Origin: a virus
Lineage: Duplodnaviria; Caudoviricetes
Length of the DNA: 64,000 nt
IMG/VR virus record: IMGVR_UViG_3300046678_000974
Span: 12,409 to 76,408 of that record
Strand: one strand, 5' to 3'
In this document: positions 12,940 through 64,000 of the stretch, in pieces
How positions within the stretch are numbered: the stretch's first letter is position 1
How the letters are laid out: each line of letters opens with the position of its first letter
Translations under genes and position numbers: made by a program
The notes under the pieces: model-generated
What the model saw: the letters and a program-made list of their open reading frames with translations, nothing else
Database searches by the model: none
What the model was told of the DNA's origin: nothing

Positions 12940-13452
12940 TCAGACTACGGACCAATTTGTACCGTTGTAAATTAGATCGACACTCGAAAAGGCAAGATTG
13001 AGTACGATACCAGTGGCGCCCAACACGTTATCAATATTCTGCGTGGCTTTCACGGTGATCGCATTTGTCGCTGCATCACCTTTGCCGTCTTTCACAGTGA
13101 TAATTCTTCCAGTCGTGGGGGCGGCTGGCAGGGTTACTTGAGTGGCAGCACCACTCGTCTTATTAATGACCACATAGCGATCAGTTGCAGCGACGGTATA
13201 GTTGCCAGCGGCGATGATCACAGCAATCTTACGGACTTCGGCAGACGAAGTGGTGATAACACCACCAACGCTCAGCGTATTTGATAGAGTGATCGGACCA
13301 GTCAGCGTTTGCGCCGTGCTTTGATGGATCGACACTGCATCATCAAAGGCGTTGTTCAGTCCGAGAGGAACAGCGCCGCCAGTATTGGCGCCGCATTGAG
13401 TGCCGTCCACAAAGACGACAGAACCATTATAGGAATTGCTAAAAACCGACAT
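12940..13452 (-). CDS. Short tail-fibre module protein, paralog 1 of 3
   Basis: True start MSVFSNSY at 13452 (GAGGA RBS); TDRYVVINK...GRIITVKDGKGDAATNAITV...YNGTNW. Confidence 0.75.
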   Translation of the reverse strand: MSVFSNSYNGSVVFVDGTQCGANTGGAVPLGLNNAFDDAVSIHQSTAQTLTGPITLSNTLSVGGVITTSSAEVRKIAVIIAAGNYTVAATDRYVVINKTSGAATQVTLPAAPTTGRIITVKDGKGDAATNAITVKATQNIDNVLGATGIVLNLAFSSVDLIYNGTNWSVV

Positions 13453-13481: not shown

Positions 13482-16400
13482 CTAGCCCACTGAGGCTGTC
13501 CAACTCATGGTCATGCTGGTACTTGTGGTCGAACCAATCAATGGTGTCCCCGGTATCGTAGGCAATCCAACCGTAGGTACGGGTTGTGGTGCTGCGCCAA
13601 CTGCATTTAAGACAACCACACTCATTGCTGGAATAGTGATCCCTGCGAGCAAAGCCGACGTAGATAAGGTGGTGGTAAAGCCAGTCGGGTGCGTCGAAGA
13701 CAACTCCCAATATGTCCAAGCTGATGTCGATGAACCATTCATCGCCACCGAAACTGGATAAGCTGTAGAGACATCGTAATTGATGATCTGACAGCAGGTA
13801 CTGTTGGCGTTCACAGTCCCCAAGGTTACGATGTTCATCCCAGAAGAGGTTGTTGAACTGATAACATTTCCGGGTGCCAATGCTCCCAGTTTTTGATATA
13901 CATATCCCGGTGGACGTAGGAAATATGGTCCTTGTCCAAACGTATTTGAATCTATCAGCCCATACCATTGATCATAGGCGATATCCCAACGATTAGCCCA
14001 TGCCAAGGTTCCTACTTTGCCGATAGTGGCATATCGAAATGCTGCATATACAGCCCCGGTCACATCAGCCTGATATGAACTGGCACCGGGCTGTCCGTCC
14101 ATGTTGAACTCGGTGAGGAATATTGGTGCTGTTGAAGATATCGCTGTATTGACATTCTGACGAACATCTAAGAAGATATCAGTGAGTTCATCTGAGAAGC
14201 ATTGTGCAACTGACTTGCTACCATTCTCCTCGGTATATCCATGTCCACTGATGAAGTCAGGATGACAGTTTTGAATGAATGTCGTTAATCTTTGATTATT
14301 GAAATACGAATCATCCAAGCCACCGCATTGATATGAGGGATCAACGGCTTTTATTCCAACCGCCATGGCGTTAAAAAGGCCGATACACGAATTGATATCG
14401 GTACCATCGGCTTCGTTAGCAAATGTCCAATAATAAACTGGCACACCACCATTCTTGAAATGTTGTGCTATTTGCTGACAACGATCTTGATGAACTGCCC
14501 AGTCAGATGGTGAAGTGATGTTCAACCATGAACACCATCCCACTGTGATGATTAAGTTGGCGGTCGTTAACGTGGTGCCAATGGTAAAGCACTTCTGCGC
14601 ATTGTTGATAAAATTATCAATCCAACTCCAATCTGCTGCTGATGTGCGAGTGGGAAAAATCTGTGTGATGTGGAAGTTCTGATTCCAGTTAAGACGAATG
14701 GAACCAATGTTCATCGACTTGCAGATGGTTTGAAATGCCGGATCGACCATCAATCCATAATCACCACGTGTGATGTTCATATCATTACAGGCAACACCAT
14801 AAAACTTTGGCGATATTGCCACACCGGTTAGTGATGTCAAATTGAAGGTGACGTTCGGTCCTGTCGGTGGTTGAACTGGCGGTCCCGGAACCAATCCCAA
14901 GGGGCTGACTGTTGTACCACTGGAGGGCTGCCACGCATCACTTGATACTGTTTTGAAGTACCATAGTACACCTTGCGGCAGATTTGCCGGACCAGTGATT
15001 GGTCCTGAGAATGTTTGGGTCGATAGATTCCAAGTGAACCAATTCTGAGAAGGACCATCTTGGGCAAAGATTATGTTTTGATAGAGATCGATTGCACTGG
15101 TATTGCCGCCACCATTGATAATGTTCCCATCCATTCGGAAGTTCTCTTGGACATCGATGGTATAGGTATGACCTCCAAATACAATGCTACCATTATTCGG
15201 TGTCGCATAGGTAGAAGTACTCAAAATGGTCGCAGATGATTGCCGCCAAACTTGTCCATTCACATAGGCAAGCGATATTACAGTGTTACCAGCCGAAGCA
15301 TCGACTGCGCCGTTTACACTAACACGCGAATTGGCCAATGTCCAACTGGACAAATCAGAACCAATAATTGACGTTAGTGGTGGCACCGTTGAACCATTGG
15401 GCGATGCTGAAACGAATGGATTGGCAACAGATGCCCAAGGATCAGATACCAGCGTCTTGACAAACCAATTCCCTAATGAGTTCTCGATATAAACACGGCT
15501 ATTCAGATACACAACTTCGACAGCCGAAACATCTGGTACCCCATTGATCACAACACGATTGTTGCTCAATGTCCAAATGGTTAGATCGGAACTAATGATC
15601 TGAGTTGCCGGAGGAATGATAGTTTCATCGGCTGATGGTGTTAATGAAGGCGGTCCCGGTGGCCCACCCGGAGGTGGTACTGGTACTTGGCTGATGCTAT
15701 AGATTTGTGACAGATAGGCGGATTGTTCAGGATATAATGATCCACCACCCCATGCTGTAACTACGCCGAAGTCAGGTGATGAACCACGATGCGGTCCCCA
15801 ATAACACCATGCCCATGAGATTGGCTGTTGTCCAGTGAGGAACCGAGGGCCACCACTAGCTTGGCCATTGACGTACTGCACGAATGTATTGCCCCAATTG
15901 GTAGCATCAGTGGTCAACATAGCATCGCCGCAGGCCATAACCATTACCGGTGCGATGTTATTAGATACCATGAAGCCCCACATCGTATTGGCGCGATTGA
16001 TATAAACGGTACCAGCATCAATACCGGTACCAATCGGCGCAACCTCATTAGGGAATGACTGGACGCCATAGACAACTTTATTGGAGACAGTGAGGTTCAC
16101 CGGCGTGGTCGAGGCCAATCGCAAGTCGCCTTCAAAGGAACCGGTCGCCACATTGAGGGGTGCTTCGCAGATGATCAATGGGTTACTGTCGATTGCTTGG
16201 ATGGCATTGCCCACACTGACGTACATGGCGTGCAGATCGGTTGGGGTGTTATCACCCCATGTCGCACCGAGATTGACGCCTTGGGCAGATATGGGTGCCC
16301 AGCGTAGATCATAACCTAAGATTGCTGTGTTATTAGCATAGCGATTGGCTATCCGTGTCCAATGCTGCGCAAATATACTCGATGTGATTGTACCTGTGGT

Positions 16401-27953: not shown

Positions 27954-30422
27954 TTGATGACCTTTCTGACACAGACTGATGTCGTTGAGCGCCTGTACAA
28001 TCTATTACCACGTGGCTGGTACCCCGACCTCCAAGATGCGCCCAATCTTCAAGCCGTCTTGTCGATGTTGGCCGCGACGTATAGCAATGACTTTGATGGT
28101 CTCTATCAACTTCTGCTCTACGTCCAGCAACAAGCACGGGTGTTCACCGCTACCGACTTCTGGCTCGATCTAGCAGCACAGGATTATTTCGGCAGTCGTC
28201 TACAGCGTCATGTGTCAGAATCAGATACCAGTTATCGTCGCAGAATCATCCTCAATCTCCTAGCACCACGTGGTACTCGGCCTGCTTTGGTTGCTAATGT
28301 AACTAACCTTACAGGTGTTACACCGAGAGTCATTGAACTTCGTAATCCGGGTGATTGCGGTTCCTATTCAAGCCTTGGCAATCCTGTCTGGGGTGGCGCT
28401 GCATATAATCAACAGGGTGCTTATGGCACGCTCACTATGCCGTTCCAACTGTTGATCAGTGTACAACGTCCACAAGGCGAAGGTATTCCGCTGATCAATG
28501 GCTATAGTATGCCGGGCAGTGGCTATGCCACCTATCCTAAGCCATTCGGTTTTACTGGTGGCAATCTACCCCCAGCAAATACTTGGGGTATCTCATCTTA
28601 TGAACAACTGATCGATATCATCGGCCAAGTTACCGATACCGATATCTATCAAATGGTATCGGATACCATGCCTGCTGGAACCATCGCTTGGACGGCGATT
28701 CATTCCGAGTTCGTTGAGTCACCACCCATCGGTGGTGGTGCTATGCTGGATGTTAATTTTTATCTGAATATGTCGGTGTTGTCAGCCAGTCGAGGCGTGC
28801 AAGGTGCACAAGCATTGGCGAATATGGCGTTTCCGATCCTGTTTCATGCCACCATGGTCGAGCAAGCCCACCTGCTCGGGCATTTTACGATGTCGCCTTT
28901 CCGTTTCTCGGCTGGTATGTCCTTGGTGTCGCCTTTGATGGTAACGATCAATATGATCATGCCGATCATCGTTTTCAAAGCAGCGATGCAATTCGAAGCG
29001 CTCTCTGCCAAGTTCACTATACCAGCTATCAGTATGACGCCAACCGTAATCTTTACTGGCCAAACACAGCCACTATTGCCTGCCAATTTGCCCTTCACCC
29101 TCGGCACGATCGTCGGTGCGCAGCCATTAATTGGTATCAACTTCATACTTGGCCAGTCTGCTCCAGGTGAAGCCGGAGGCATGCCGGCTATTGCAGTCAA
29201 TTCTGTCTGTCATGTGGGCGATTTTGCCGCTTCAGTGCCGCCTTCTCTTGCATCGGTCACTGCTGGTACAGTCGCCGGTCTCACAGAAGTTACCGGTGTC
29301 GGTCTGTCCAGCAGTTTCAATATCCCAGCAGTCAGCGGCACGACGATCGCCGCTCCGCTCGCACCACAACCGCAGCCAGTGCTGCCGGAAACACTGCCGT
29401 TCCTATTGGGTGGTGGCGTGCAGACCCAGCCACAAGTCACGTTGGCACTGCCGGATGTACAGAGCACAACCATTCTGGGCAGTCTTGCCGTGCCACCGAG
29501 ATTGGCTGCTGTCACAAGCCAAGCAACCCTTGGCACGCTTGGCGTCTCGACCAGCGCGTTCCAAACTTTCAATCCAACAAGGAAGACCAGCAATATCAGT
29601 CTTTCTCCCGATCTGCTTACCGCAACCAAGACGATTGGCACCAGTGCCGATCCGATCTTTGGGACCAAAACGGCTACGTCTGGATTGTACTATTGGGAAG
29701 TCACAGTCAGCATTACCAATGCCAGTCAGATCACCGCTGGTATCGCCAATATTACAGCACCATTCGCATCAGGTGATTTCATCGGCTTCGATGTCAACAG
29801 TATCGGTTGGGCAGCAAATGGCAATGTGTTGGAAAATAACATATCACAAGCATCATGGCCAACATGGACGTCAACCGGTGCACCAATCCAGCCTCAGACA
29901 TTGACTACCAGCGCACCCGGCGGCACACAGATGTCGCTGGCTTGGGGCGCCGCTGTCGATGTAATCACCATGTGCTTTGCCTTCGATGCCTATGATGGCT
30001 TGCTATATGGTCGTATAGGCGCCGGGCCTTGGAATGGTGGTGGCGCAACCACCTCCGCCGGACTAGTGACACTCGGTGTGACACCGCTTGGACAAGGCAC
30101 CTCTAGTGGATCGACTGCGATGACAATTCTTGGCCAGACGCCGCTTGGTAGCTCGATCGCAGGACAGTCCAGTGGTGCTGTTATCCCGCCGCCATCTGGG
30201 CCACCCAATGCGCCTCAAACACAAGTCGGTACCATCCTGTCCGGTTCGGTCGTGATCACATGGCAGTCTACACAAACCGGTTTGCTAATCCCATCCACTG
30301 TGTTCGACGGTGGGGCAATCGGTCCAGCGGTAACCCTGTTCTCGTCGGGCGATAAGGCAGTCATGGCAGTTGATAGTGCGCACTGGCAGTATCAGCCACC
30401 TGACGGATACACAGCATGGTAA
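27954..30422 (+). CDS. Baseplate wedge gpI-like protein fused to a linker and C-terminal SPRY/B30.2-like domain
   Basis: WLDLAAQDYFG...ESDTSYRRRI...RGTR at the N-terminus; GLYYWEVTV...FAFDA...YQPPDGYTAW SPRY-like C-terminus. Confidence 0.75.
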   Translation: MMTFLTQTDVVERLYNLLPRGWYPDLQDAPNLQAVLSMLAATYSNDFDGLYQLLLYVQQQARVFTATDFWLDLAAQDYFGSRLQRHVSESDTSYRRRIILNLLAPRGTRPALVANVTNLTGVTPRVIELRNPGDCGSYSSLGNPVWGGAAYNQQGAYGTLTMPFQLLISVQRPQGEGIPLINGYSMPGSGYATYPKPFGFTGGNLPPANTWGISSYEQLIDIIGQVTDTDIYQMVSDTMPAGTIAWTAIHSEFVESPPIGGGAMLDVNFYLNMSVLSASRGVQGAQALANMAFPILFHATMVEQAHLLGHFTMSPFRFSAGMSLVSPLMVTINMIMPIIVFKAAMQFEALSAKFTIPAISMTPTVIFTGQTQPLLPANLPFTLGTIVGAQPLIGINFILGQSAPGEAGGMPAIAVNSVCHVGDFAASVPPSLASVTAGTVAGLTEVTGVGLSSSFNIPAVSGTTIAAPLAPQPQPVLPETLPFLLGGGVQTQPQVTLALPDVQSTTILGSLAVPPRLAAVTSQATLGTLGVSTSAFQTFNPTRKTSNISLSPDLLTATKTIGTSADPIFGTKTATSGLYYWEVTVSITNASQITAGIANITAPFASGDFIGFDVNSIGWAANGNVLENNISQASWPTWTSTGAPIQPQTLTTSAPGGTQMSLAWGAAVDVITMCFAFDAYDGLLYGRIGAGPWNGGGATTSAGLVTLGVTPLGQGTSSGSTAMTILGQTPLGSSIAGQSSGAVIPPPSGPPNAPQTQVGTILSGSVVITWQSTQTGLLIPSTVFDGGAIGPAVTLFSSGDKAVMAVDSAHWQYQPPDGYTAW

Positions 30423-30437
30423 AGGCTTAAATAAGAC

Positions 30438-33398
30438 ATGGCCAAACCTAACTTTTTCGTAGGCGAGTTGCTCGCAGCCGATGAACTCAATGCAGCTTTT
30501 GCTGATTGCGTTTCCCTTAGCGCAACAGGTACCCAAACACTTGCTTCGATAATCAATCTACCACAACTCATTGCAACCATCAGCGTTCAAGCAGAACAGT
30601 TGGTGGTTACCGGTGATCTGGTGTGCACCTCTAGCTCAGCCGTAACCCTTCCTGTAGGCCCAACGATCGAACGGCCTAATCAGCCTGCGGGTGGAATGCT
30701 GCGTTGCAATTCCGATGCCGCTACCTTGGAAGCCTATCTTCCTTCGGGTAAATGGGTCACACTCGCAACCACCGATGCCGCTGTCACACCGGTCAATCCT
30801 CCACTCAGTATGGAAGCACCAACATTCGGTGTGGCTACCAGCAATGCAATCCCAATGGGTTGGTCGAATCCACACGGGGGCACTGCCCCATTCACCTTCA
30901 AGGTTGAGTTTCGTCCCACTGGATCAGCAATATTTGCCACTTGGACACAGCAAACTTCTGCCCTCGCTACGACAGTGTCAGGTCTGCTACCAGCAACTCG
31001 CTATGATTTTCAGGTCACCGCGTTCAATGCGGCTGGTTCGGCAATCTCCAATATAGTCTCCACTAATACAGTTGGCTTCCTCGATGGAGGGCCGGGTAAT
31101 CTTACCGCTTCCCAACCAACTAGCACGACAATGGCATTGACGTGGTTGCCAATCAGTGGTGCAGCCTACCAAGTTCAATACGCAGTACCAGGAGCAACCC
31201 TGTGGACTGATTTCGATGGGCCTGTTAGCGGTAATAATGTCACTGTCACAGGACTCATCGCCAATACCCAGTACCTGTTCCATGTCATAGCCAAGACATT
31301 ATCGAATAACGCTGAGTCATTGGTAGCACAAAATGCCACCCTTACAGCAGCCACCACAGCCCCCAATACGGCGACAGCTTTGGTGGCTAATGGCATTACT
31401 ACTTCAGGGTTTACCGTCTCGTGGCAGCCTCCTACGGCTGGCACACAGCCATTGTCCTATCGCCTGCAATATCAATTGGCAGGTACCTCAACATACACTG
31501 ATTATGGCCAAGCACAGACCCAGACCTCAGTATCTTTGATCAATCTCGATTCGTCATCCGGCTACAACGTCCGAGTGATCGCAACGAATTCGGCAGGGTC
31601 AAGCACCAGTGTGCCATTGACGATTACAACTCTTACCGCTGTGGCAAACCCCGGTGAGGTTAAGGGATCGCAGATGTCGAGCCCAACAGCACCAACGATC
31701 ATCGCTCCCTTCATCGCCAATGTTCCTCAAGCCTCAGCAATCGCCCTCACCGGTATTCAATTGATCGATCCGGCTGCCATCTATTCGCCCGGAACAATCG
31801 CAGTCACAGTATTGGCCAACACTGGCATGGTCACCATGACAGATGTGAGCGGAAATAATATCACCGGGTCTGGAACCAATGTCATCAACTACGCCTCAAC
31901 TTATCCCGCAGTACAAGCCGCATTGGCATCGTTGGTCTATACCGCGACTACCCTCGGGAGTGACAACGTTACCATCACAGTAGTTGATCAATTGATCAAA
32001 CAGACTGCATTATCGATTGCGATTACTGTCTCTGATGGTGTAGGAGTAACTCCATCACAGCCTCCACCGGGGGGTAATCCATCCTCAACGATTACTGCAA
32101 CTGGACAGCCTTCTGATTTCAATGGCACCTTAGCCAATCGCTCCAAAAGTTTCACTGATCGTCTGGGAATCAATGTGCGGTTGGAAGACCCCGGCTATAC
32201 ACGGAACTTCACTGGACTGCAAGCAGCAGTGTTGGAAAATCTGATCATGTATGTGGGTCAGAGCAATATCCCATATCTTCGGCATAACGCAGGTACTGCC
32301 CTCAATCCAGCGTTCATGAGTCAGATTGCCACCAATACCAATACCCATTTTATTCTCGCCATCGATCAAAAGGTCCAGCCACAATCCTATAGTGTGGTCA
32401 CTAATCTCATGGAACAGATGGCATTGTTCTATAATAATTCTGTTTCTGCTTTCGAAGGACCCTATGGTGCCGATCAGGCACCCACAGTGTTGGGTCCAGT
32501 TAACTTTTTGCCGTCAGCAGCACAGTTTCAGAACACCTTATACAGTGCCGCTCATGCAGTCGGTATACCAGCACGCCAGTTGACACCGATCGCACCCGGT
32601 AATAACAACCAGTTCGGTTCGCCTCCAGCCGATGTCGGTACCACTTCGTTGTTTCCGCCATTCAGTCCTAATGGTACCGGTAGTCCATTGTTCACTACCG
32701 ATTCCAATGGCTATCTGGCAAATGCTTTGAGTGGTGCACGTACCGCAACACCCAATCTACCAACCGCAATCGTCTCATTCGGCTGGCAATCATTCCCTAA
32801 TGGTACCACCAATACAGGTCTCGGGTTGGTTAATGAAACCACACAGGCCGTCTATATTTTGGAGACTTTGTTCTCGGCTTACAAACAGAACGTCACCAAT
32901 ATCATGATCAATGAACTGCTGGATGTGCAGGTCGGTCAATCAATCGATGATTTTGGTCAGTCCTTTGGTCTGTTCAACTCAGCAGGCACACAGAAAATCT
33001 CAGCCTTGGCCTTGCGTGCTATCATGTCCAAGCTGATCGATAATTCAATCTTCTCATTCAGCTTCGTACCAGGGCATCTGGATTATACCGTGACCGGTAA
33101 GCCCGGTCCCTATGGTGGCTTCGTGAATACAGGCTATCAAGATGTGGTGTTTCAACGTTCAGATGGTACCTACCTATTAATTATGTGGAATGAACAAGTT
33201 CTCAATACACGGGGTGGTAATAATGCTCCGCTCAATGTGCCGAGTGTGCCGATTATCTTGACGTTCAATGAGACCACCAAGAGCAATGTTCAAGTGTTTG
33301 ATCCGATCTTAGGACAGACTGTACAGCAACAGAGCACAGTGGGATCAATGAATATCAGTCTGCCGCCCTATCCTATCATTGTTCAGGTGACCTTCTGA
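30438..33398 (+). CDS. Tail fibre with three intact FN3 domains and a GH-A-like barrel lacking catalytic Glu
   Basis: Fibre-anchor start FFVGELLAADELN; three FN3 repeats; DRLGINV...AFEGPYGAD...AIVSFGW...FGLF. Confidence 0.75.
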   Translation: MAKPNFFVGELLAADELNAAFADCVSLSATGTQTLASIINLPQLIATISVQAEQLVVTGDLVCTSSSAVTLPVGPTIERPNQPAGGMLRCNSDAATLEAYLPSGKWVTLATTDAAVTPVNPPLSMEAPTFGVATSNAIPMGWSNPHGGTAPFTFKVEFRPTGSAIFATWTQQTSALATTVSGLLPATRYDFQVTAFNAAGSAISNIVSTNTVGFLDGGPGNLTASQPTSTTMALTWLPISGAAYQVQYAVPGATLWTDFDGPVSGNNVTVTGLIANTQYLFHVIAKTLSNNAESLVAQNATLTAATTAPNTATALVANGITTSGFTVSWQPPTAGTQPLSYRLQYQLAGTSTYTDYGQAQTQTSVSLINLDSSSGYNVRVIATNSAGSSTSVPLTITTLTAVANPGEVKGSQMSSPTAPTIIAPFIANVPQASAIALTGIQLIDPAAIYSPGTIAVTVLANTGMVTMTDVSGNNITGSGTNVINYASTYPAVQAALASLVYTATTLGSDNVTITVVDQLIKQTALSIAITVSDGVGVTPSQPPPGGNPSSTITATGQPSDFNGTLANRSKSFTDRLGINVRLEDPGYTRNFTGLQAAVLENLIMYVGQSNIPYLRHNAGTALNPAFMSQIATNTNTHFILAIDQKVQPQSYSVVTNLMEQMALFYNNSVSAFEGPYGADQAPTVLGPVNFLPSAAQFQNTLYSAAHAVGIPARQLTPIAPGNNNQFGSPPADVGTTSLFPPFSPNGTGSPLFTTDSNGYLANALSGARTATPNLPTAIVSFGWQSFPNGTTNTGLGLVNETTQAVYILETLFSAYKQNVTNIMINELLDVQVGQSIDDFGQSFGLFNSAGTQKISALALRAIMSKLIDNSIFSFSFVPGHLDYTVTGKPGPYGGFVNTGYQDVVFQRSDGTYLLIMWNEQVLNTRGGNNAPLNVPSVPIILTFNETTKSNVQVFDPILGQTVQQQSTVGSMNISLPPYPIIVQVTF

Positions 33399-58213: not shown

Positions 58214-58834
58214 TTATCTATGGATCGTGATCAAACACCCTGCGACGAGGGTGACGACCATACCGAACAGGGCTGCTTGGCCATAGCGTTGGGCCATATG
58301 CTCATTAGTGATGTACACGGTGACCGCTTTCAATTGGATGCTATCGAGGGAGACTCGGATACTATCCATGAGATTTTTACCGAGATGTTTTAGTACTTCG
58401 CCACTGGCAGCTTGTAGACCTGCGTTATTTCTCACATCGATAGTGTATTGCAGTTCTTGTAGTTTACGAGTGATCAGTTCATTGGTTGTGGAGACGTGTT
58501 CGATTTCTCCGACGGGTAAGGCGGCATCGGTAAGGATTTGCATATTGGTTTCGATATGGGTGAGTGCCTCATGATAAGGGGCAAGATAGCCTATATCGCC
58601 GGTGATGATATAGCCACGTTGGCCGGTTTCGGCATTGAGCAGAGTGACCATTAGAGCATGGGCGGCATTTTCAGCGGATTGGGCTTGATCGATTTTTTGT
58701 ATGATTGCGCTGAATTGCCAGCAGGCGGCGACGGTCATGATCAAGCTGATAACAAAGATCACGGAGAAAAACATACGCATGAGATATTTATATGTTTTGT
58801 GTCGTACTAGATAACGTGATTGATATGGGTTCAT
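58214..58834 (-). CDS. Stand-alone CHASE3 sensor-domain membrane protein
   Basis: TM1, LLNAETGQRGYIITGDIGYLAPY, GKNLMDSIR, TM2, then stop. Confidence 0.85.
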   Translation of the reverse strand: MNPYQSRYLVRHKTYKYLMRMFFSVIFVISLIMTVAACWQFSAIIQKIDQAQSAENAAHALMVTLLNAETGQRGYIITGDIGYLAPYHEALTHIETNMQILTDAALPVGEIEHVSTTNELITRKLQELQYTIDVRNNAGLQAASGEVLKHLGKNLMDSIRVSLDSIQLKAVTVYITNEHMAQRYGQAALFGMVVTLVAGCLITIHR

Positions 58835-60345
58835 TGGGTTCGCACGTTAGTTGAGGTTGCTGGTGAATTGCTGCCTTTTTGTGGTGATTGGCCAGCTTGG
58901 GCCAATTTGAGTTGGTTGGCTAGGAGTTTTTCCTGATCTTGTTCGATTTCGCCTAATTCGGCATCGATATCTTCATATTTGAAGAACTTGTTAAGTTGGC
59001 GCAGGGCTTCTTTCTTCGACATAAGACCGCCTTGTACGAGTGCAACGATTGTTGCACTTTCTGTTTGTTGGTCGAATGGAGTAGCGGGGAACCAATCTGG
59101 GTAGATCAATTCGAATGATACATTGGTCGCAGACATATTGGTACGCTTGCCTTTGACGATGATCGGTACTTTGTTGGCGATCATCAGCATCATATTGAGT
59201 AGTTGGCGGATGCCAATCTCGCAATAGCTTTCTCGCAGGGTAGAAGCTAGTTGTACTGTCGGCAGATAGAGGAATCTTTGTACCACGGAGCTATGTGAAG
59301 TGGCGATCTTTGATGGATCGGCTCGATTGGAATGGATTGAGTGCAGGGCTTCGTCTTTTAGCTCTTTGACGGTATCGATGATGGCGTGTGCGGCATCACC
59401 GGTGATTTCGAGTACTTTGGCATCGCCTTCGACCCCCAGAACCAATGCATTACCTTCGGCGCGTACGAAATCAGCGACTTGGCTTGGATTGCGAACTTTG
59501 AAGACCATCAAGGGGTCGGATGCGTATTTCAAAGCGGCATCGGAACGACTCATTAGGTAATCTATTTGGACTGCGTTTTCGATGGCTGGTTCGAAGGTGC
59601 AAAGACCATCTATTTGGTTTCCGCCGGGTAGATTTTTGATCCAGACGAATGGTACGAAGCCCAAATTGTGTTGAACTGAGCGAGTTGGGTCGATTCTGGG
59701 GCGATAATTTTCATCATGGGTGACTTCCCATGGTTCGAACCACGTTTCTGCGTCATTATCCCAGATGCGTTGGAACCAAAACCACTTATTCATGGCTAGT
59801 TTGTCGATTTGGTAGCCTGCATTGAGTAAATCGCGACCTTGTAGTTTGTATTTTTCTGTTAATTTGATGAGTTTTTGTGGATCGAGAGGATCGAATTGTG
59901 GTGTTAGGAAGGTGGTCCAATGCGCAAGTGGGAAGAATCGGTTATTGAGGACGCGGATTTGGATAGCGACGGAACCGATGGCACCTTTATAGGCGGCATC
60001 TTGCATCAGGTAGACTAGATGGCTGTCTTGGATGACATCTTCGCACCATTGTTGGACGTTTTGGTCTTCGGTGAGGATACTTGGGAAGCGATCTTCACCA
60101 AACATGAAGGATGTGGACTCTTCGACCACGGATCGCATCAAGTTCAGTCCAGTATTGGTAGATGGGGCGCGATTGATCTCTTCGATGTACCGAACTGCTG
60201 ATTTTCCGACGTATTGCTGATAGTAGCCGTACTCGAAGCAGTCGTAGAGGGTACCCTCTAGGATTTTCTGGTAGATGAAGAGGTCATAGTACCGATCAGG
60301 CAGTTGTTTGTCCTTAACGGTTTTCTCTCGAATGATGCTATACAT
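58831..60345 (-). CDS. Portal protein
   Basis: 504 aa; HNLGFVPFVW, QIDYLMSR...LKYASDPLMVF, SKKEAL; SPP1 gp6-like layout. Confidence 0.8.
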   Translation of the reverse strand: MYSIIREKTVKDKQLPDRYYDLFIYQKILEGTLYDCFEYGYYQQYVGKSAVRYIEEINRAPSTNTGLNLMRSVVEESTSFMFGEDRFPSILTEDQNVQQWCEDVIQDSHLVYLMQDAAYKGAIGSVAIQIRVLNNRFFPLAHWTTFLTPQFDPLDPQKLIKLTEKYKLQGRDLLNAGYQIDKLAMNKWFWFQRIWDNDAETWFEPWEVTHDENYRPRIDPTRSVQHNLGFVPFVWIKNLPGGNQIDGLCTFEPAIENAVQIDYLMSRSDAALKYASDPLMVFKVRNPSQVADFVRAEGNALVLGVEGDAKVLEITGDAAHAIIDTVKELKDEALHSIHSNRADPSKIATSHSSVVQRFLYLPTVQLASTLRESYCEIGIRQLLNMMLMIANKVPIIVKGKRTNMSATNVSFELIYPDWFPATPFDQQTESATIVALVQGGLMSKKEALRQLNKFFKYEDIDAELGEIEQDQEKLLANQLKLAQAGQSPQKGSNSPATSTNVRTQ

Positions 60346-60408
60346 GATGACCTATTTAAGGTTGAGAAGATCGCTACTGGCTAAATATTGGCATCTAAGG
60401 GGTAAAAC

Positions 60409-60921
60409 GTGATGGGTGTTGTTGCCAATTCTGCATATCAAGAGGGATTAGCCCTCAAGGCCAATTCGGCGGATGTGATTGCCAGTTCCAATCCGATTGG
60501 GTTGAATGATCTGGTCGCTGATGCATTTTCGTTATCTGGTGTGCCTGTTGGTGGCAGTGGTTCGCCCGCCAGTCAGACGGTGGCTGGTCCTGTAGTGTTT
60601 TCTGGTGCGGTGACCTTCAGCGCTGGTCTATTGGGTCATGTGGTGGTTCTGAGCGTAGCTGGGCCGTATACGGTGGCAGCGACGGATCGTTATGTGTTGG
60701 TCAACTTTGCTGGTGCGATGATCGTCAACTTGCCGGCGGCGCCGGTGATTGGTCGTTTGGTGACTGTGAAGGACATATCTGGTTTAGCAGCAACCAATGT
60801 GATCACCGTGAAGGGGACGCAGAACATTGATGGTATTACTGGATCGACCGGTGTGGTGGTCAATACGGCGTATGGATCGGTTGATGTGGTGTATAATGGA
60901 ACCACCTGGAGCATCTTGTAA
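60409..60921 (+). CDS. Short tail-fibre module protein, paralog 3 of 3
   Basis: TDRYVLV...GRLVTVKDISGLAATNVITVKGTQNIDG...YNGTTW. Confidence 0.75.
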   Translation: MMGVVANSAYQEGLALKANSADVIASSNPIGLNDLVADAFSLSGVPVGGSGSPASQTVAGPVVFSGAVTFSAGLLGHVVVLSVAGPYTVAATDRYVLVNFAGAMIVNLPAAPVIGRLVTVKDISGLAATNVITVKGTQNIDGITGSTGVVVNTAYGSVDVVYNGTTWSIL

Positions 60922-61019
60922 TGGCAAAACGACCAAAACCTCGACCGGTTCCGGCAAAACCGACCATTACATCGGTCAAGCCAACGAGTAATGAATCGGT
61001 TTCATTGATCTGGAGATGA
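60921..61019 (+). CDS. 32-aa mini-ORF encoding FN3 strands A-B
   Basis: TAATG-coupled; MAKRPKPRPVPAKPTITSVKPTSNESVSLIWR; stop AGA-TGA-C lies 1 nt before the next ATG. Confidence 0.5.
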   Translation: MAKRPKPRPVPAKPTITSVKPTSNESVSLIWR

Positions 61020-61020
61020 C

Positions 61021-63267
61021 ATGCCGTTAACCTATCAACCTGCATTTCGTGTACATGGCACGACGACATGGATCAATTTTGGTCAACCGGTGACGAGCAC
61101 GAGTGTATTGATCACTGGATTGTCGCCATCAACGCAGTATGATTTTCAGATTACTTCGATCAATGCGTTTGGTTCGACGCCGAGTACACCGATTTCCGCG
61201 ACCACACCGGCGGTTACGACGATCAACAGTATTGGTCTAGCGCCGCAGACATTTTCTGCTGGTTCAGCGATTGGTACCACGGTTGGTACTGTGACGGTTA
61301 CCATGTCATCGGGCAATTTTACTGGTGCATTGACAGTGACTGGTACCGATGCTGGATCATTTACCAGTCCTATTGTTGGCAATCTGTTGAAGTTGGCAGT
61401 TGGTAATACGACTGTGAAGACCTATAGCATCAACATTGTTGCCACACAAAGTGGGGTGACCACATTTACCCAGCCCTTCAGCATTACTGCTACATCAGCA
61501 GTTACTGAGGCATCGGAAGGTGCGTTGATTACGACTATTGGTCCGGTGATGAATGCTTCACTTACCAAATACGTGGCTCAGTCTTCACCCCCATGGAATG
61601 TGTTTGCGCTGATTAATACTGGTACCGGTCGTGATCCGCAGATCAGTTTGGACACGGGGAGTGGTCCCCAGGTATTGCCACAGAGTGGTTTGGTTGCCAA
61701 ACTGGCATATCACAATCACGTTGAATGGCAGTTCAATGGCACGAATTGGTATTGGTGGGATACGGCGTCGAGTGCCACACCGGACAAGTTCACATTGTGG
61801 ACGATTAACAGTGTCAATTTGTCAGGTAATGGCACTTATACGCCTAATTTGGCGGCGAATCAGCCAGTTAGTACTGTCTCTGTTGTGCAGTCTGATGGTC
61901 AGACATTTCAGGGGACCTATTCGGTTGTCTCGACACCGAGTGGTGCCTTCAAGATGGTTGGTGCGGTATTGACGTCGAATGTGGTTTTGAGTGCATCAAG
62001 TTATAGTGTGACTGTGACAGCGACGCCGAATGTAGTTGTTGAAGGTGCATTATCGACTACAGTCAATTTGACGAATGGTACTGTTTCTAATGTCCAAGTA
62101 CCTCTCGGCATCCATCTTGGGAATGGATTGTTCTCATCTGCTGCACCTTATGGCAGCACGAATCTGCATTGGAATGGTGTGATTAGCGCTATGGGGCGTA
62201 CTCCGGCAGTTTTAGGAGCTACGGGGGCTAATACGTTTGGTGGTTTTGCTGGTGGATCACCCCCGCCTAATTGGGGAGCAGGTGATTTAGGTAGTTGGCA
62301 AGGTGCGAGTATTCCGACCAATGGTAGTGTGACTCCTCTGCTTACTTGGTCGTTTACTGATGGAACGACTGATCAGGCATTTTCTGCTTATGCGGCAATA
62401 GGCACGGCGAGTGAACCATCATATGGTGGGCAGAAACTATCTTTCTGGATTCAGAATAGTCTCACGCAATGGAAAAATGCTGGTTTCACCAAAGTTTATA
62501 TCCGCGTGAACTGGGAGTTTCAATCTAGTACATCTACTGGTGGTCCTATTGGAGGATTTGGGGTTGGTAGCACAGGAAACTTGCCAATTTGGCGCAATGC
62601 TTGGCGGGGTTTCTGTAATGCAGCCCATGGTGTCTCTGGACTTACTGTAAAGATGGTTTGGTGTCCAGCAACGGCGAATGATACTGGTGATCCAGCCGTT
62701 CCTCCTTTTGGAGCGATATTGAATTATTTTCCTGCTGTGAATAGTGGGTCTGGTTTTACTGGTGCAGCCGCTGATGGCTTTGCTCCGGCTGCTGTTGGTG
62801 GTAAGTTTGTTGATGTTATAGGACCTGATTTGTATGCCTTTGGTGGCGGTGGATTATCGTATCCGGATGAAGTTGATCCCACGAGTTTGACGACTACGAC
62901 TGCATGGTTTTTTGATTCTTGTGTGAAGATTGCCCAATCACAGGGATTGACTTTTGGCATATCTGAGTTTGGGGATTTTTCAGGCCAAACTGAGGCTACT
63001 GCTAGGGCTTGGGACCCGACCTATAGTCAAGGAGGGCGCACTGGTGGTTGGACTCCCAATCATTTTTTCAACTATATGAACAATCTTAAAAATCTCAGTC
63101 CTGCGGTGCCTATTGAGTTCATATGCATCTATGACGTCAATGTCGCCCCATTACTAATTCCATTCAGCAACATGTCACAGACCAACAGTGATTTGATGGG
63201 TTATCGGAAAATCCTTGGCCTAGGAGGCACTGCTCCGACTCCGATAATGACAATTGCTGTGCCATAA
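61021..63267 (+). CDS. Fibre protein: FN3 C-G fragment + cadherin/Ig-like domains + GH26-like glycosidase
   Basis: MPLTYQPAFRVHG...YDFQITSIN; KVYIRVNWEF, VDVIGPDLY and FGISEFG GH26-like motifs with both Glu present. Confidence 0.75.
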   Translation: MPLTYQPAFRVHGTTTWINFGQPVTSTSVLITGLSPSTQYDFQITSINAFGSTPSTPISATTPAVTTINSIGLAPQTFSAGSAIGTTVGTVTVTMSSGNFTGALTVTGTDAGSFTSPIVGNLLKLAVGNTTVKTYSINIVATQSGVTTFTQPFSITATSAVTEASEGALITTIGPVMNASLTKYVAQSSPPWNVFALINTGTGRDPQISLDTGSGPQVLPQSGLVAKLAYHNHVEWQFNGTNWYWWDTASSATPDKFTLWTINSVNLSGNGTYTPNLAANQPVSTVSVVQSDGQTFQGTYSVVSTPSGAFKMVGAVLTSNVVLSASSYSVTVTATPNVVVEGALSTTVNLTNGTVSNVQVPLGIHLGNGLFSSAAPYGSTNLHWNGVISAMGRTPAVLGATGANTFGGFAGGSPPPNWGAGDLGSWQGASIPTNGSVTPLLTWSFTDGTTDQAFSAYAAIGTASEPSYGGQKLSFWIQNSLTQWKNAGFTKVYIRVNWEFQSSTSTGGPIGGFGVGSTGNLPIWRNAWRGFCNAAHGVSGLTVKMVWCPATANDTGDPAVPPFGAILNYFPAVNSGSGFTGAAADGFAPAAVGGKFVDVIGPDLYAFGGGGLSYPDEVDPTSLTTTTAWFFDSCVKIAQSQGLTFGISEFGDFSGQTEATARAWDPTYSQGGRTGGWTPNHFFNYMNNLKNLSPAVPIEFICIYDVNVAPLLIPFSNMSQTNSDLMGYRKILGLGGTAPTPIMTIAVP

Positions 63268-63275
63268 ATATCGTT

Positions 63276-64000
63276 ATGACCATTTCCTACAATGTTTTGT
63301 ATCGTGTGCATGGCACCACTACTTGGACAACGTTTGGTAATACCGCTTTAACAACGGTTACAGTTACTGGTCTTAATCCAAATACTTCGTATGATTTTGA
63401 AGTACAAGCGGTCAATGAGGTTGGTACGGCTACCTCCAACATTGTGCAGGGCAGTACCTTGGGTGGTGTGACGTTCACTAGCATCACGCTATCGTCTCAG
63501 ACATTCACTGCTGGATCGAATGTTGGCACGCCGGTTGGCACAATCTCTGTTGGGCTATCATCAGGTACTTTCAATGGTGCATTCCAACCGATCACTGGGC
63601 CGGATGCAGCGTTCTTCCAAATTGTCTCTGGGGTGTTACAATTAGCGGTCAATAATACAACGGCTCGCTCGTATAACATTTCTATTACGGTCAATCAGAG
63701 CGGTGTGACCAATACGCCTTTCACACAAGCATTCCCGAATATTGTCGCCAGTGTGGGTTCGCTTGAAGCTAGCGAAGGTGCTCTGATTCAGACTATTGGT
63801 CCTACGATGAATGCTTCGCGTACCAAATACGTGGCTCAGTCAACTGGGCCGTGGAATGTGTTTGCGCTGATTAATACTGGTACCGGTCGTGATCCGCAGA
63901 TCAGTTTGGACACGGGGAGTGGTCCCCAGGTATTGCCACAGAGTGGTTTGGTTGCCAAACTGGCATATCACAATCACGTTGAATGGCAGTTCAATGGCAC
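63276..64000 (+). CDS. Paralogous fibre protein (FN3 C-G fragment + Ig-like domain), 3'-truncated
   Basis: Open to the window end: MTISYNVLYRVHGTTTWTTFG...YDFEVQAVNEVG...; absent from the ORF track because it has no stop. Confidence 0.8.
   Translation, partial: MTISYNVLYRVHGTTTWTTFGNTALTTVTVTGLNPNTSYDFEVQAVNEVGTATSNIVQGSTLGGVTFTSITLSSQTFTAGSNVGTPVGTISVGLSSGTFNGAFQPITGPDAAFFQIVSGVLQLAVNNTTARSYNISITVNQSGVTNTPFTQAFPNIVASVGSLEASEGALIQTIGPTMNASRTKYVAQSTGPWNVFALINTGTGRDPQISLDTGSGPQVLPQSGLVAKLAYHNHVEWQFNG
63852..64000 (+). repeat. At least 149-bp perfect direct repeat of 61594-61742
   Basis: Identical sequence tggaatgtgtttgcg...ttcaatggcac. Confidence 0.95.

Follow-up and report, generated by a model that had tools for sequence, protein, structure and literature searches.

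A fibronectin type III domain divided between two genes, a candidate docking joint for enzyme-like tail proteins of a Caudoviricetes phage

The DNA considered here, referred to below as the window, is a stretch of 64,000 nucleotides (nts) from a phage of the Caudoviricetes and comprises bases 12409-76408 of the IMG/VR virus record IMGVR_UViG_3300046678_000974, which is 76,408 base pairs (bp) long and carries 127-bp terminal repeats. Our subject is a string of plus-strand genes in which a small fibre-like gene is followed by an open reading frame (ORF) of 32 codons, hereafter the mini-ORF, and by the gene of an enzyme-like protein of 748 amino acids (aa) that begins in the middle of a fibronectin type III (FN3) domain. 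We use "tag" for a piece with the first two strands of this fold (A-B) and "catcher" for an N-terminal piece with strands C-G. The features of the locus are as follows.

58831-60345, minus strand: portal gene, divergent; the plus-strand gene string starts downstream of it
60412..60921, plus strand: small fibre-like protein (start ATG at 60412, about 169 aa), matched to phrog_972 tail fibre with E = 6e-5
60921..61019, plus strand: mini-ORF (32 aa) with FN3 strands A-B (tag) after a basic lead rich in Pro, as judged by tag-profile rank and fusion model
61021..63267, plus strand: 748-aa enzyme-like protein, in order the catcher, a conserved module (about 345 aa) and a variable C-terminal domain without a Pfam family
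61021..61218, plus strand: N-terminal catcher of the 748-aa protein (its residues 1-66), with FN3 strands C-G, as judged by Pfam, the PDB structure FN3con and an invariant Met1
63276..63998, plus strand, continuing at the record start: paralog, 712 aa in all, with the same catcher N-terminus (63276-63470)

The small fibre is the first gene of the string; its ATG is preceded by AAGGGG, a TAAATA motif is found at 60382-60387, and its homolog in the syntenic locus L006 has the same end point. The TAA of this gene overlaps the ATG of the mini-ORF (TAATG), and GGAG is located 9 nts upstream of the latter. The mini-ORF product ends in ...SVSLIWR*, the final residue being one past the strand-B Trp. 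The ATG of the 748-aa ORF (N-terminus MPLTYQPAFRVHGTTTW) lies one base past the TGA of the mini-ORF, in the +1 frame relative to it, and in the 748-aa frame there is a TGA five codons upstream of the ATG with no start codon in between. The paralog begins with MTISYNVLYRVHGTTTW, and its ORF wraps round the end of the record. A TAAATA motif is found 5 nts upstream of its ATG (63255-63275), and neither a Shine-Dalgarno element nor a peptide resembling the mini-ORF precedes it. The TAAATA motifs ahead of the paralog and of the small-fibre gene fit T4-late-like boxes.

An earlier note, made from the letters of the window, had read the 748-aa protein and its paralog as beginning at strand C of an FN3 domain, and this reading was borne out. 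In both proteins the matches to the Pfam profiles fn3 and FN3_DSCAM leave out the start of the profile (84-89 positions) and set in at position 22-31; the 748-aa protein by itself covers fn3 positions 22/47-83 (26-83 for its catcher), that is, the profile without strands A-B, and FN3con aligns to its N-terminus from FN3con residue 44 onward. The 748-aa protein and the paralog have approximately 345 N-terminal residues in common with an independent homolog of 630 aa, P0005, while the C-terminal domains differ, and Met1 is first and invariant in all three. The start of P0005 is 39 nts from a divergent portal-like gene, and in L006 two such proteins follow the small fibre after a gap of 13 nts, so that neither place has room for an upstream A-B ORF. 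When the 159 proteins retrieved by a profile search of 1.84 billion representatives and by earlier searches were scanned, starts at strand C were found in 18, the two copies of the window included; at least 16 further proteins, mostly distant, thus share this start. Their N-termini follow the pattern M, 3-8 residues, Y-x-x-x-Y/F-R, which is as expected for a conserved N-terminal attachment module with exchangeable C-terminal enzymes, to judge from the sequences. The label "GH26-like", which the 748-aa protein had been given before, found no support in Pfam: its C-terminal half (62101-63264) matched no Pfam family even at E <= 1. Because P0005 has a GH16-like domain in the C-terminal place (E = 4e-4, below the cut-off), the enzyme module appears to be exchanged behind the conserved N-terminal part. 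A search of IMG/VR with the 748-aa protein found no relatives, and blastn of the locus against GenBank phages gave no match.

Elsewhere in the window, three further pieces that look like strands A-B without the rest of the domain are found in two other proteins, and a third protein provides intact domains for comparison.

13485..13604, minus strand (tag 13485-13562): 40-aa C-terminal extension of a 1620-aa multi-glycosidase protein, a Pro-rich linker followed by FN3 strands A-B
29883..29945, plus strand: A-B-like piece 1 in the C-terminal SPRY-like region of an 822-aa baseplate protein, by both Trp-anchored profiles
30201..30263, plus strand: A-B-like piece 2 in the same region of the 822-aa protein, by both Trp-anchored profiles
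30804..31637, plus strand: three intact FN3 domains of a 986-aa fibre, the internal reference for an unbroken BC loop

To score these pieces, a tag profile was built from six C-terminal A-B tags of other phages and applied to 1,553 Trp-anchored sites of this genome. The four orphan pieces, which the earlier note had picked out, took ranks 1-4 of the 1,553: the tail of the 1620-aa protein scored 29.8, piece 1 of the 822-aa protein 27.7, the mini-ORF 27.2 and piece 2 of the 822-aa protein 24.2, against a background of -7.8 (standard deviation 7.8). The sites next in rank were two intact FN3 domains of the 986-aa fibre. By this profile the score of the mini-ORF equals that of bona fide tags. A second Trp-anchored profile, made from 23 intact internal FN3 domains of other phages and applied to 1,504 sites, placed piece 1 of the 822-aa protein 3rd, the 1620-aa tail 4th and piece 2 6th. 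Alignment with intact FN3 domains located all the breaks in the BC loop, as the earlier note had proposed. Its description of the two 822-aa pieces as inserts in a baseplate SPRY domain stands in part: the profile ranks uphold the inserts, and the name SPRY goes back solely to an ESM Atlas lead. The 1620-aa protein ends in ...STTSTSMTMSWTASVG (last residues WTASVG), and its 47-aa tail matches only the first two strands of solved FN3 domains (11 matches; the best is RPTP-sigma, E = 2e-3). A local hidden Markov model (HMM) of the three intact FN3 domains and an A-B HMM detected none of the short pieces, and these methods were judged insensitive for about 20 residues. No similarity was found between the mini-ORF DNA and the rest of its own genome.

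The same split point is present at gene boundaries in related phages, where the earlier note had suggested looking for it. In six distinct myophage loci (L007, L009, L010, L017, L019, with L020 alike, and L021, with L022 and L023 alike) strands A-B of an FN3 domain form the end of the sheath initiator (PF10934), and strand C opens the product of the following gene. The latter genes form a second catcher-led group (MSGT..TYQVRYRVKG...), which is found directly after the sheath-initiator gene in baseplate modules like those of E217 and Pam3. The sheath-initiator tails are 30-40 aa long and end 0-6 residues past the strand-B Trp, and solved sheath initiators (117-125 aa) have no A-B tail. The tail in L010 matches the A-B strands only, those of titin and fibronectin FN3 domains in the PDB (E = 2e-4). 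Tag and catcher genes are in the same frame with a stop between them in L007, L017 and L019 and in different frames in L009, L010 and L021; because the frames vary in this way, neither read-through nor any one type of frameshift is the conserved outcome, and two separate chains are.

A further arrangement was found in L016, a 114-kb contig with two adaptors of 89 and 92 aa, each with a catcher at its N-terminus and a tag at its C-terminus.

L016:1681-1950 and L016:6248-6526: adaptors, FN3 strands C-G followed by A-B of the next domain, by fn3 match

Their fn3 scores of 28.9 and 30.4 bits are above the Pfam cut-off and come in two stretches, so the boundaries of the adaptors are two strands out of phase with the domain boundaries. 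Each is located directly before a catcher-led enzyme, one of which, P0022, is a homolog of the 748-aa protein with the common conserved N-terminal module. The mini-ORF of the window corresponds to the last third of such an adaptor, that is, linker and tag without the catcher. In principle, by analogy with pilins, the adaptors could chain head to tail. Overall, in 8 gene pairs of other phages the tags end 0-6 residues past the strand-B Trp, where the catchers begin. Scans of metagenomes and genomes with the catcher alignment returned only intact bacterial FN3 domains, which were used as unbroken references, and a search of IMG/VR with the sheath-initiator alignment gave one locus, L012, which has no tail. 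We regard the comparative genomics as the decisive evidence; at the level of sequence, it strongly supports a split FN3 joint.

We also examined whether the two chains of the window fit together as one domain. When the mini-ORF and the N-terminus of the 748-aa protein were read as a fusion (with AGAT as R), the product was colinear with 16 intact FN3 domains, with a BC loop about 5 residues shorter. Pfam fn3 covered positions 4-83 of the fusion at 27.8 bits (cut-off 25), and only the two chains together span the full length of an FN3 domain. AF2 predicted for the fusion a complete FN3 domain, with a predicted local distance difference test score (pLDDT) of 94.5; strand A is supplied by residues 15-23 of the mini-ORF and strand B by residues 26-32, and solved FN3 domains were matched by this model as a whole (template modelling score about 0.77). 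This modelling result speaks for compatibility only. A two-chain co-fold that paired the mini-ORF with the 748-aa N-terminus (residues 1-70) gave a score of 0.60, while the best control had 0.26; this is weak support, in which the runs agreed in at least 98% of contacts and the partner pLDDT was at least 75. In calibration, 58 of the 80 solved complexes had reached this mark, as against 2 of the 110 mismatched pairs; with a score of 0.60 or less, only 7 of those 80 complexes reached it, and so did both of the mismatches that passed.

From these observations the interpretation that we favour, and hold to be probable, is that one FN3 domain is divided over two separately translated chains as a non-covalent docking joint completed by the hairpin of a tag, and that the mini-ORF fills the catcher of the 748-aa protein. 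The N-terminal FN3 domain of the 748-aa protein is split at the BC loop; the mini-ORF would make the A-B hairpin, and the 748-aa protein begins with strands C-G. The catchers of this protein and of the 712-aa paralog are short of two of the three strands of one sheet, and a tag hairpin from another chain would complete the sandwich and so form the joint. It would be one case of a widespread phage device, with tags at the C-termini of baseplate, fibre and small adaptor proteins and catchers heading fibres and glycan-degrading enzymes. On the virion of this phage the part of the tag is most likely played by the 1620-aa C-terminus and by two loops in the 822-aa protein, and these would hold the two enzymes on the tail. 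The mini-ORF would encode a tag alone; it lies just ahead of its catcher, to which its translation would be coupled, and probably derives from the gene of a catcher-plus-tag adaptor. Its translation is argued for by its own ATG, by the GGAG 9 nts upstream and by coupling on both sides. Most likely it fills the 748-aa catcher during synthesis, either as a cap that gives free enzyme or as a placeholder until assembly.

Of the picture drawn in the earlier note, the core idea, in which A-B and C-G pieces are the two halves of an FN3 joint completed in trans, is strongly supported by the comparative genomics and by the precedent of Tuc2009 described below. The sequences show that the domain is split, that the split is conserved and where the genes begin and end; binding, the pairing of tag with catcher and the role of the peptide we infer, and for binding the co-fold gives a weak prediction. 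A cellulosome-like array on the virion, as imagined there, may follow from such joints. The further idea that A-B tags sit on the baseplate and on fibre tips does not extend to the mini-ORF.

Several observations weigh against our interpretation. As a free 32-aa peptide, the mini-ORF product cannot tether an enzyme and has no evident benefit. It ranked only 41st of 1,504 with the intact-FN3 profile, gave on its own no significant FN3 match in Pfam or the PDB, and adds nothing to the fn3 score, which is 27.8 bits with and without it. It is unique to this genome, with no detectable homologs, and an open frame of 32 codons says little for coding. The AF2 model of the fusion was steered by an alignment of intact FN3 domains, and the co-fold passed weakly, in a setting where halves of one domain may pass by likeness alone. 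For the 822-aa protein, AF2 prediction of residues 540-822 without an alignment gave a pLDDT of 32, which is unusable and did not place the pieces, and no homologs were found for the region bearing them. Finally, the tail of the 1620-aa protein is missing from the sole homolog found, P0012, which is 53% identical in the last domain and ends right after the last glycosidase domain.

Part of this evidence can also be read to mean that split FN3 docking is real, the mini-ORF being a remnant that is not translated or has no use: deletion or module exchange would have left it behind as the 3' end of an earlier adaptor or tag gene, and the 748-aa enzyme would dock on virion tags like its paralog. 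We consider this unlikely, yet an account to be taken seriously: the peptide has no anchor part and no detectable homologs or conservation, no such ORF is present in the syntenic L006 or in the ERZ26871208 contig, and the L016 adaptors are a plausible ancestor. Against it, 99 nts have been kept without a stop, with an ATG of their own within TAATG, GGAG 9 nts upstream and 1 nt to the next start, and the tag score is that of bona fide tags. Dead DNA is usually lost fast from phage genomes. A more elaborate version of the docking joint, in which phages own a "phase-shifted" FN3 kit with boundaries in the BC loop, adaptors chain or branch fibres by hairpin donation and the tag-only peptide acts as a displaceable placeholder or a switch between free and mounted enzyme, is in our view rather doubtful in that full form. 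It is improbable that the truncated FN3 needs no partner, being covered in cis by the next domain or by oligomerisation, and that the A-B pieces are chance linker-like segments, rich in Pro, Ser and Thr, that end in Trp. The pieces are indeed short and compositionally simple, the local HMMs did not detect them and the two in the 822-aa protein could not be placed in the model; this account, however, leaves aside that all four head the ranking by a profile built elsewhere, that tags end where catchers begin in the 8 gene pairs of other phages, and that the 1620-aa and L010 tails match FN3 strands A-B and nothing else in the PDB. Moreover, the chance of a top-4 site lying within 100 nts upstream of one of the two catchers on the right strand is, as a rough estimate, about 0.005.

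The remaining alternatives would make one gene of two. A programmed +1 frameshift at AGA-UGA-C, proposed earlier on account of its prfB-like context, would join the mini-ORF to the 748-aa ORF and yield an intact N-terminal FN3 domain. The site shares with prfB a UGA-C stop after the zero-frame codon and a downstream ORF shifted by +1; because of the in-frame TGA five codons upstream and the lack of a start in between, fusion is possible only by a shift within ATC TGG AGA, just ahead of that weak-context stop, and the product would carry a complete FN3. In other respects the site differs from prfB. A slippery codon of CUU-U type is lacking, and the tRNA of the P-site codon AGA would be unable to re-pair after a shift onto GAU. 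The GGAG (61012-61015) overlaps the P-site AGA (61014-61016) instead of lying 3 nts upstream, and is 5 nts ahead of the ATG at 61021, a well-placed ribosome binding site for the 748-aa ORF, which has its own conserved start. Homologs start at the same Met without an upstream A-B ORF, so that neither the shift site nor the fused reading is conserved, and elsewhere tag and catcher are found in the same, the -1 or the +1 frame. The shortened BC loop of the fusion is a further point against it, and the frameshift is thus disfavoured to the extent that we hold it very improbable. A -1 frameshift joining the small fibre to the mini-ORF was also considered and rejected, since the 24-nt overlap window has no slippery heptamer. 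As the record is a metagenome assembly, a 1-nt indel might instead have broken one gene in two. Separately assembled contigs of two runs, one from soil and one from rhizosphere and belonging to two studies, were compared over 60400-61623, and they were base-for-base alike, with 0 differences, 0 gaps and no indel; either run is possibly the source of the record. In addition, the site is not a homopolymer and the start position is kept in homologs, which makes an assembly error the least credible of the explanations considered.

A solved precedent for the same principle, as judged by analogy, is the BppU-BppA joint of Lactococcus phage Tuc2009, in which BppU ends in a 25-residue hairpin that completes a beta-sheet in domain 2 of BppA, giving a composite similar to a titin domain (mBio 2016, PMC4742702). 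The joint there is non-covalent, made by two chains and Ig/FN3-like, and it hangs an accessory carbohydrate-binding module on the baseplate (PMC4742702). The terminal hairpin is in both cases an extension absent from tail-less relatives (here the 1620-aa tail compared with P0012, and the sheath initiators of the six loci compared with solved ones), and the partner sandwich, here the 748-aa catcher, lacks exactly those strands. The likeness is one of architecture. The incomplete domain is at the C-terminus of BppA, whereas here it is at the N-terminus of enzymes and fibres; the tags of our phage are on a giant glycosidase fibre and in apparently internal loops, and those of relatives on the sheath initiator and on adaptors of 89-92 aa. 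To the tag-only peptide Tuc2009 offers no counterpart.

The SpyTag/SpyCatcher pair differs in fold, which is CnaB there and FN3 here, and "tag" and "catcher" are used in this text as an analogy for a non-covalent joint. In the pili of the chaperone-usher pathway (Pap/Fim), an incomplete Ig-like fold is completed by a strand of another chain, the pilins being without their last strand (G) and receiving one strand. Like pilins, the catcher-plus-tag adaptors of L016 would both accept and donate, and a transient filler that is later exchanged is one possible role of the mini-ORF, although such an exchange is speculative. In the present case, by contrast, it is strands A-B, the first two, that are absent, what is donated is a hairpin, and no chaperone or usher homologs are involved. 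The split FN3 joint may therefore work like donor-strand complementation, by analogy and not as a member of that family.

Several other features of the genome touch on these proteins. The likely gp25-like wedge or sheath-initiator protein of this phage (26372-26764, 131 aa; phrog_43, E = 2e-3) has no FN3 tail, and a PF10934 search of the genome gave no match. On the sequence evidence, the 822-aa protein bears the putative tags in place of the sheath initiator. The C-terminus of the 748-aa protein (63229-63267), ...GGTAPTPIMTIAVP*, looks like an inter-domain linker that runs into the first residues of an FN3 A strand, and MTISYN opens the product of the next gene; this may be the scar of a tandem duplication. 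The small fibre-like proteins at 12940-13449 (minus strand) and 60412-60921 (plus strand) are paralogs, 47% identical over 150 aa, and both belong to phrog_972. The former is located directly after the tag-bearing end of the 1620-aa gene and the latter directly before the mini-ORF tag. P0012 (L004:3728-10324, 2,198 aa), which carries no tag, is followed by unrelated small genes. In three related contigs (L006:12101-12643, L016:9841-10413 and the ERZ26871208 contig) a gene for an Asp/Arg beta-hydroxylase (PF05118) is found right after catcher-led enzymes. A PF05118 search of the window phage's own genome detected none, with a control that was uninformative for that search.

The known principle is thus a sandwich completed in trans by a hairpin; what appears to be new here, to judge from the gene sequences, is the tag-only mini-ORF, the tags on sheath initiators and adaptors, and an enzyme-like cargo on a myophage tail. 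Our literature search found no paper on split FN3 joints in myophage baseplates, sheath initiators, adaptors or enzyme cargo. It is only partly understood how a single baseplate comes to carry several receptor-binding or glycan-degrading proteins and how phages exchange these modules. With a short, recognisable hairpin tag and a five-strand catcher as markers, it would become possible to predict from sequence which tail protein attaches to which, and the split would account for fibre genes whose products seem to lack the beginning of a domain. For annotators it would be a warning that such gene pairs are not to be merged or "repaired" as frameshifts. For phage engineering the joint would offer a natural, small, non-covalent plug for swapping enzymes or receptor binders. 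If the tag-only peptide is functional, it would provide a new means of deciding whether the enzyme is bound to the virion or free.

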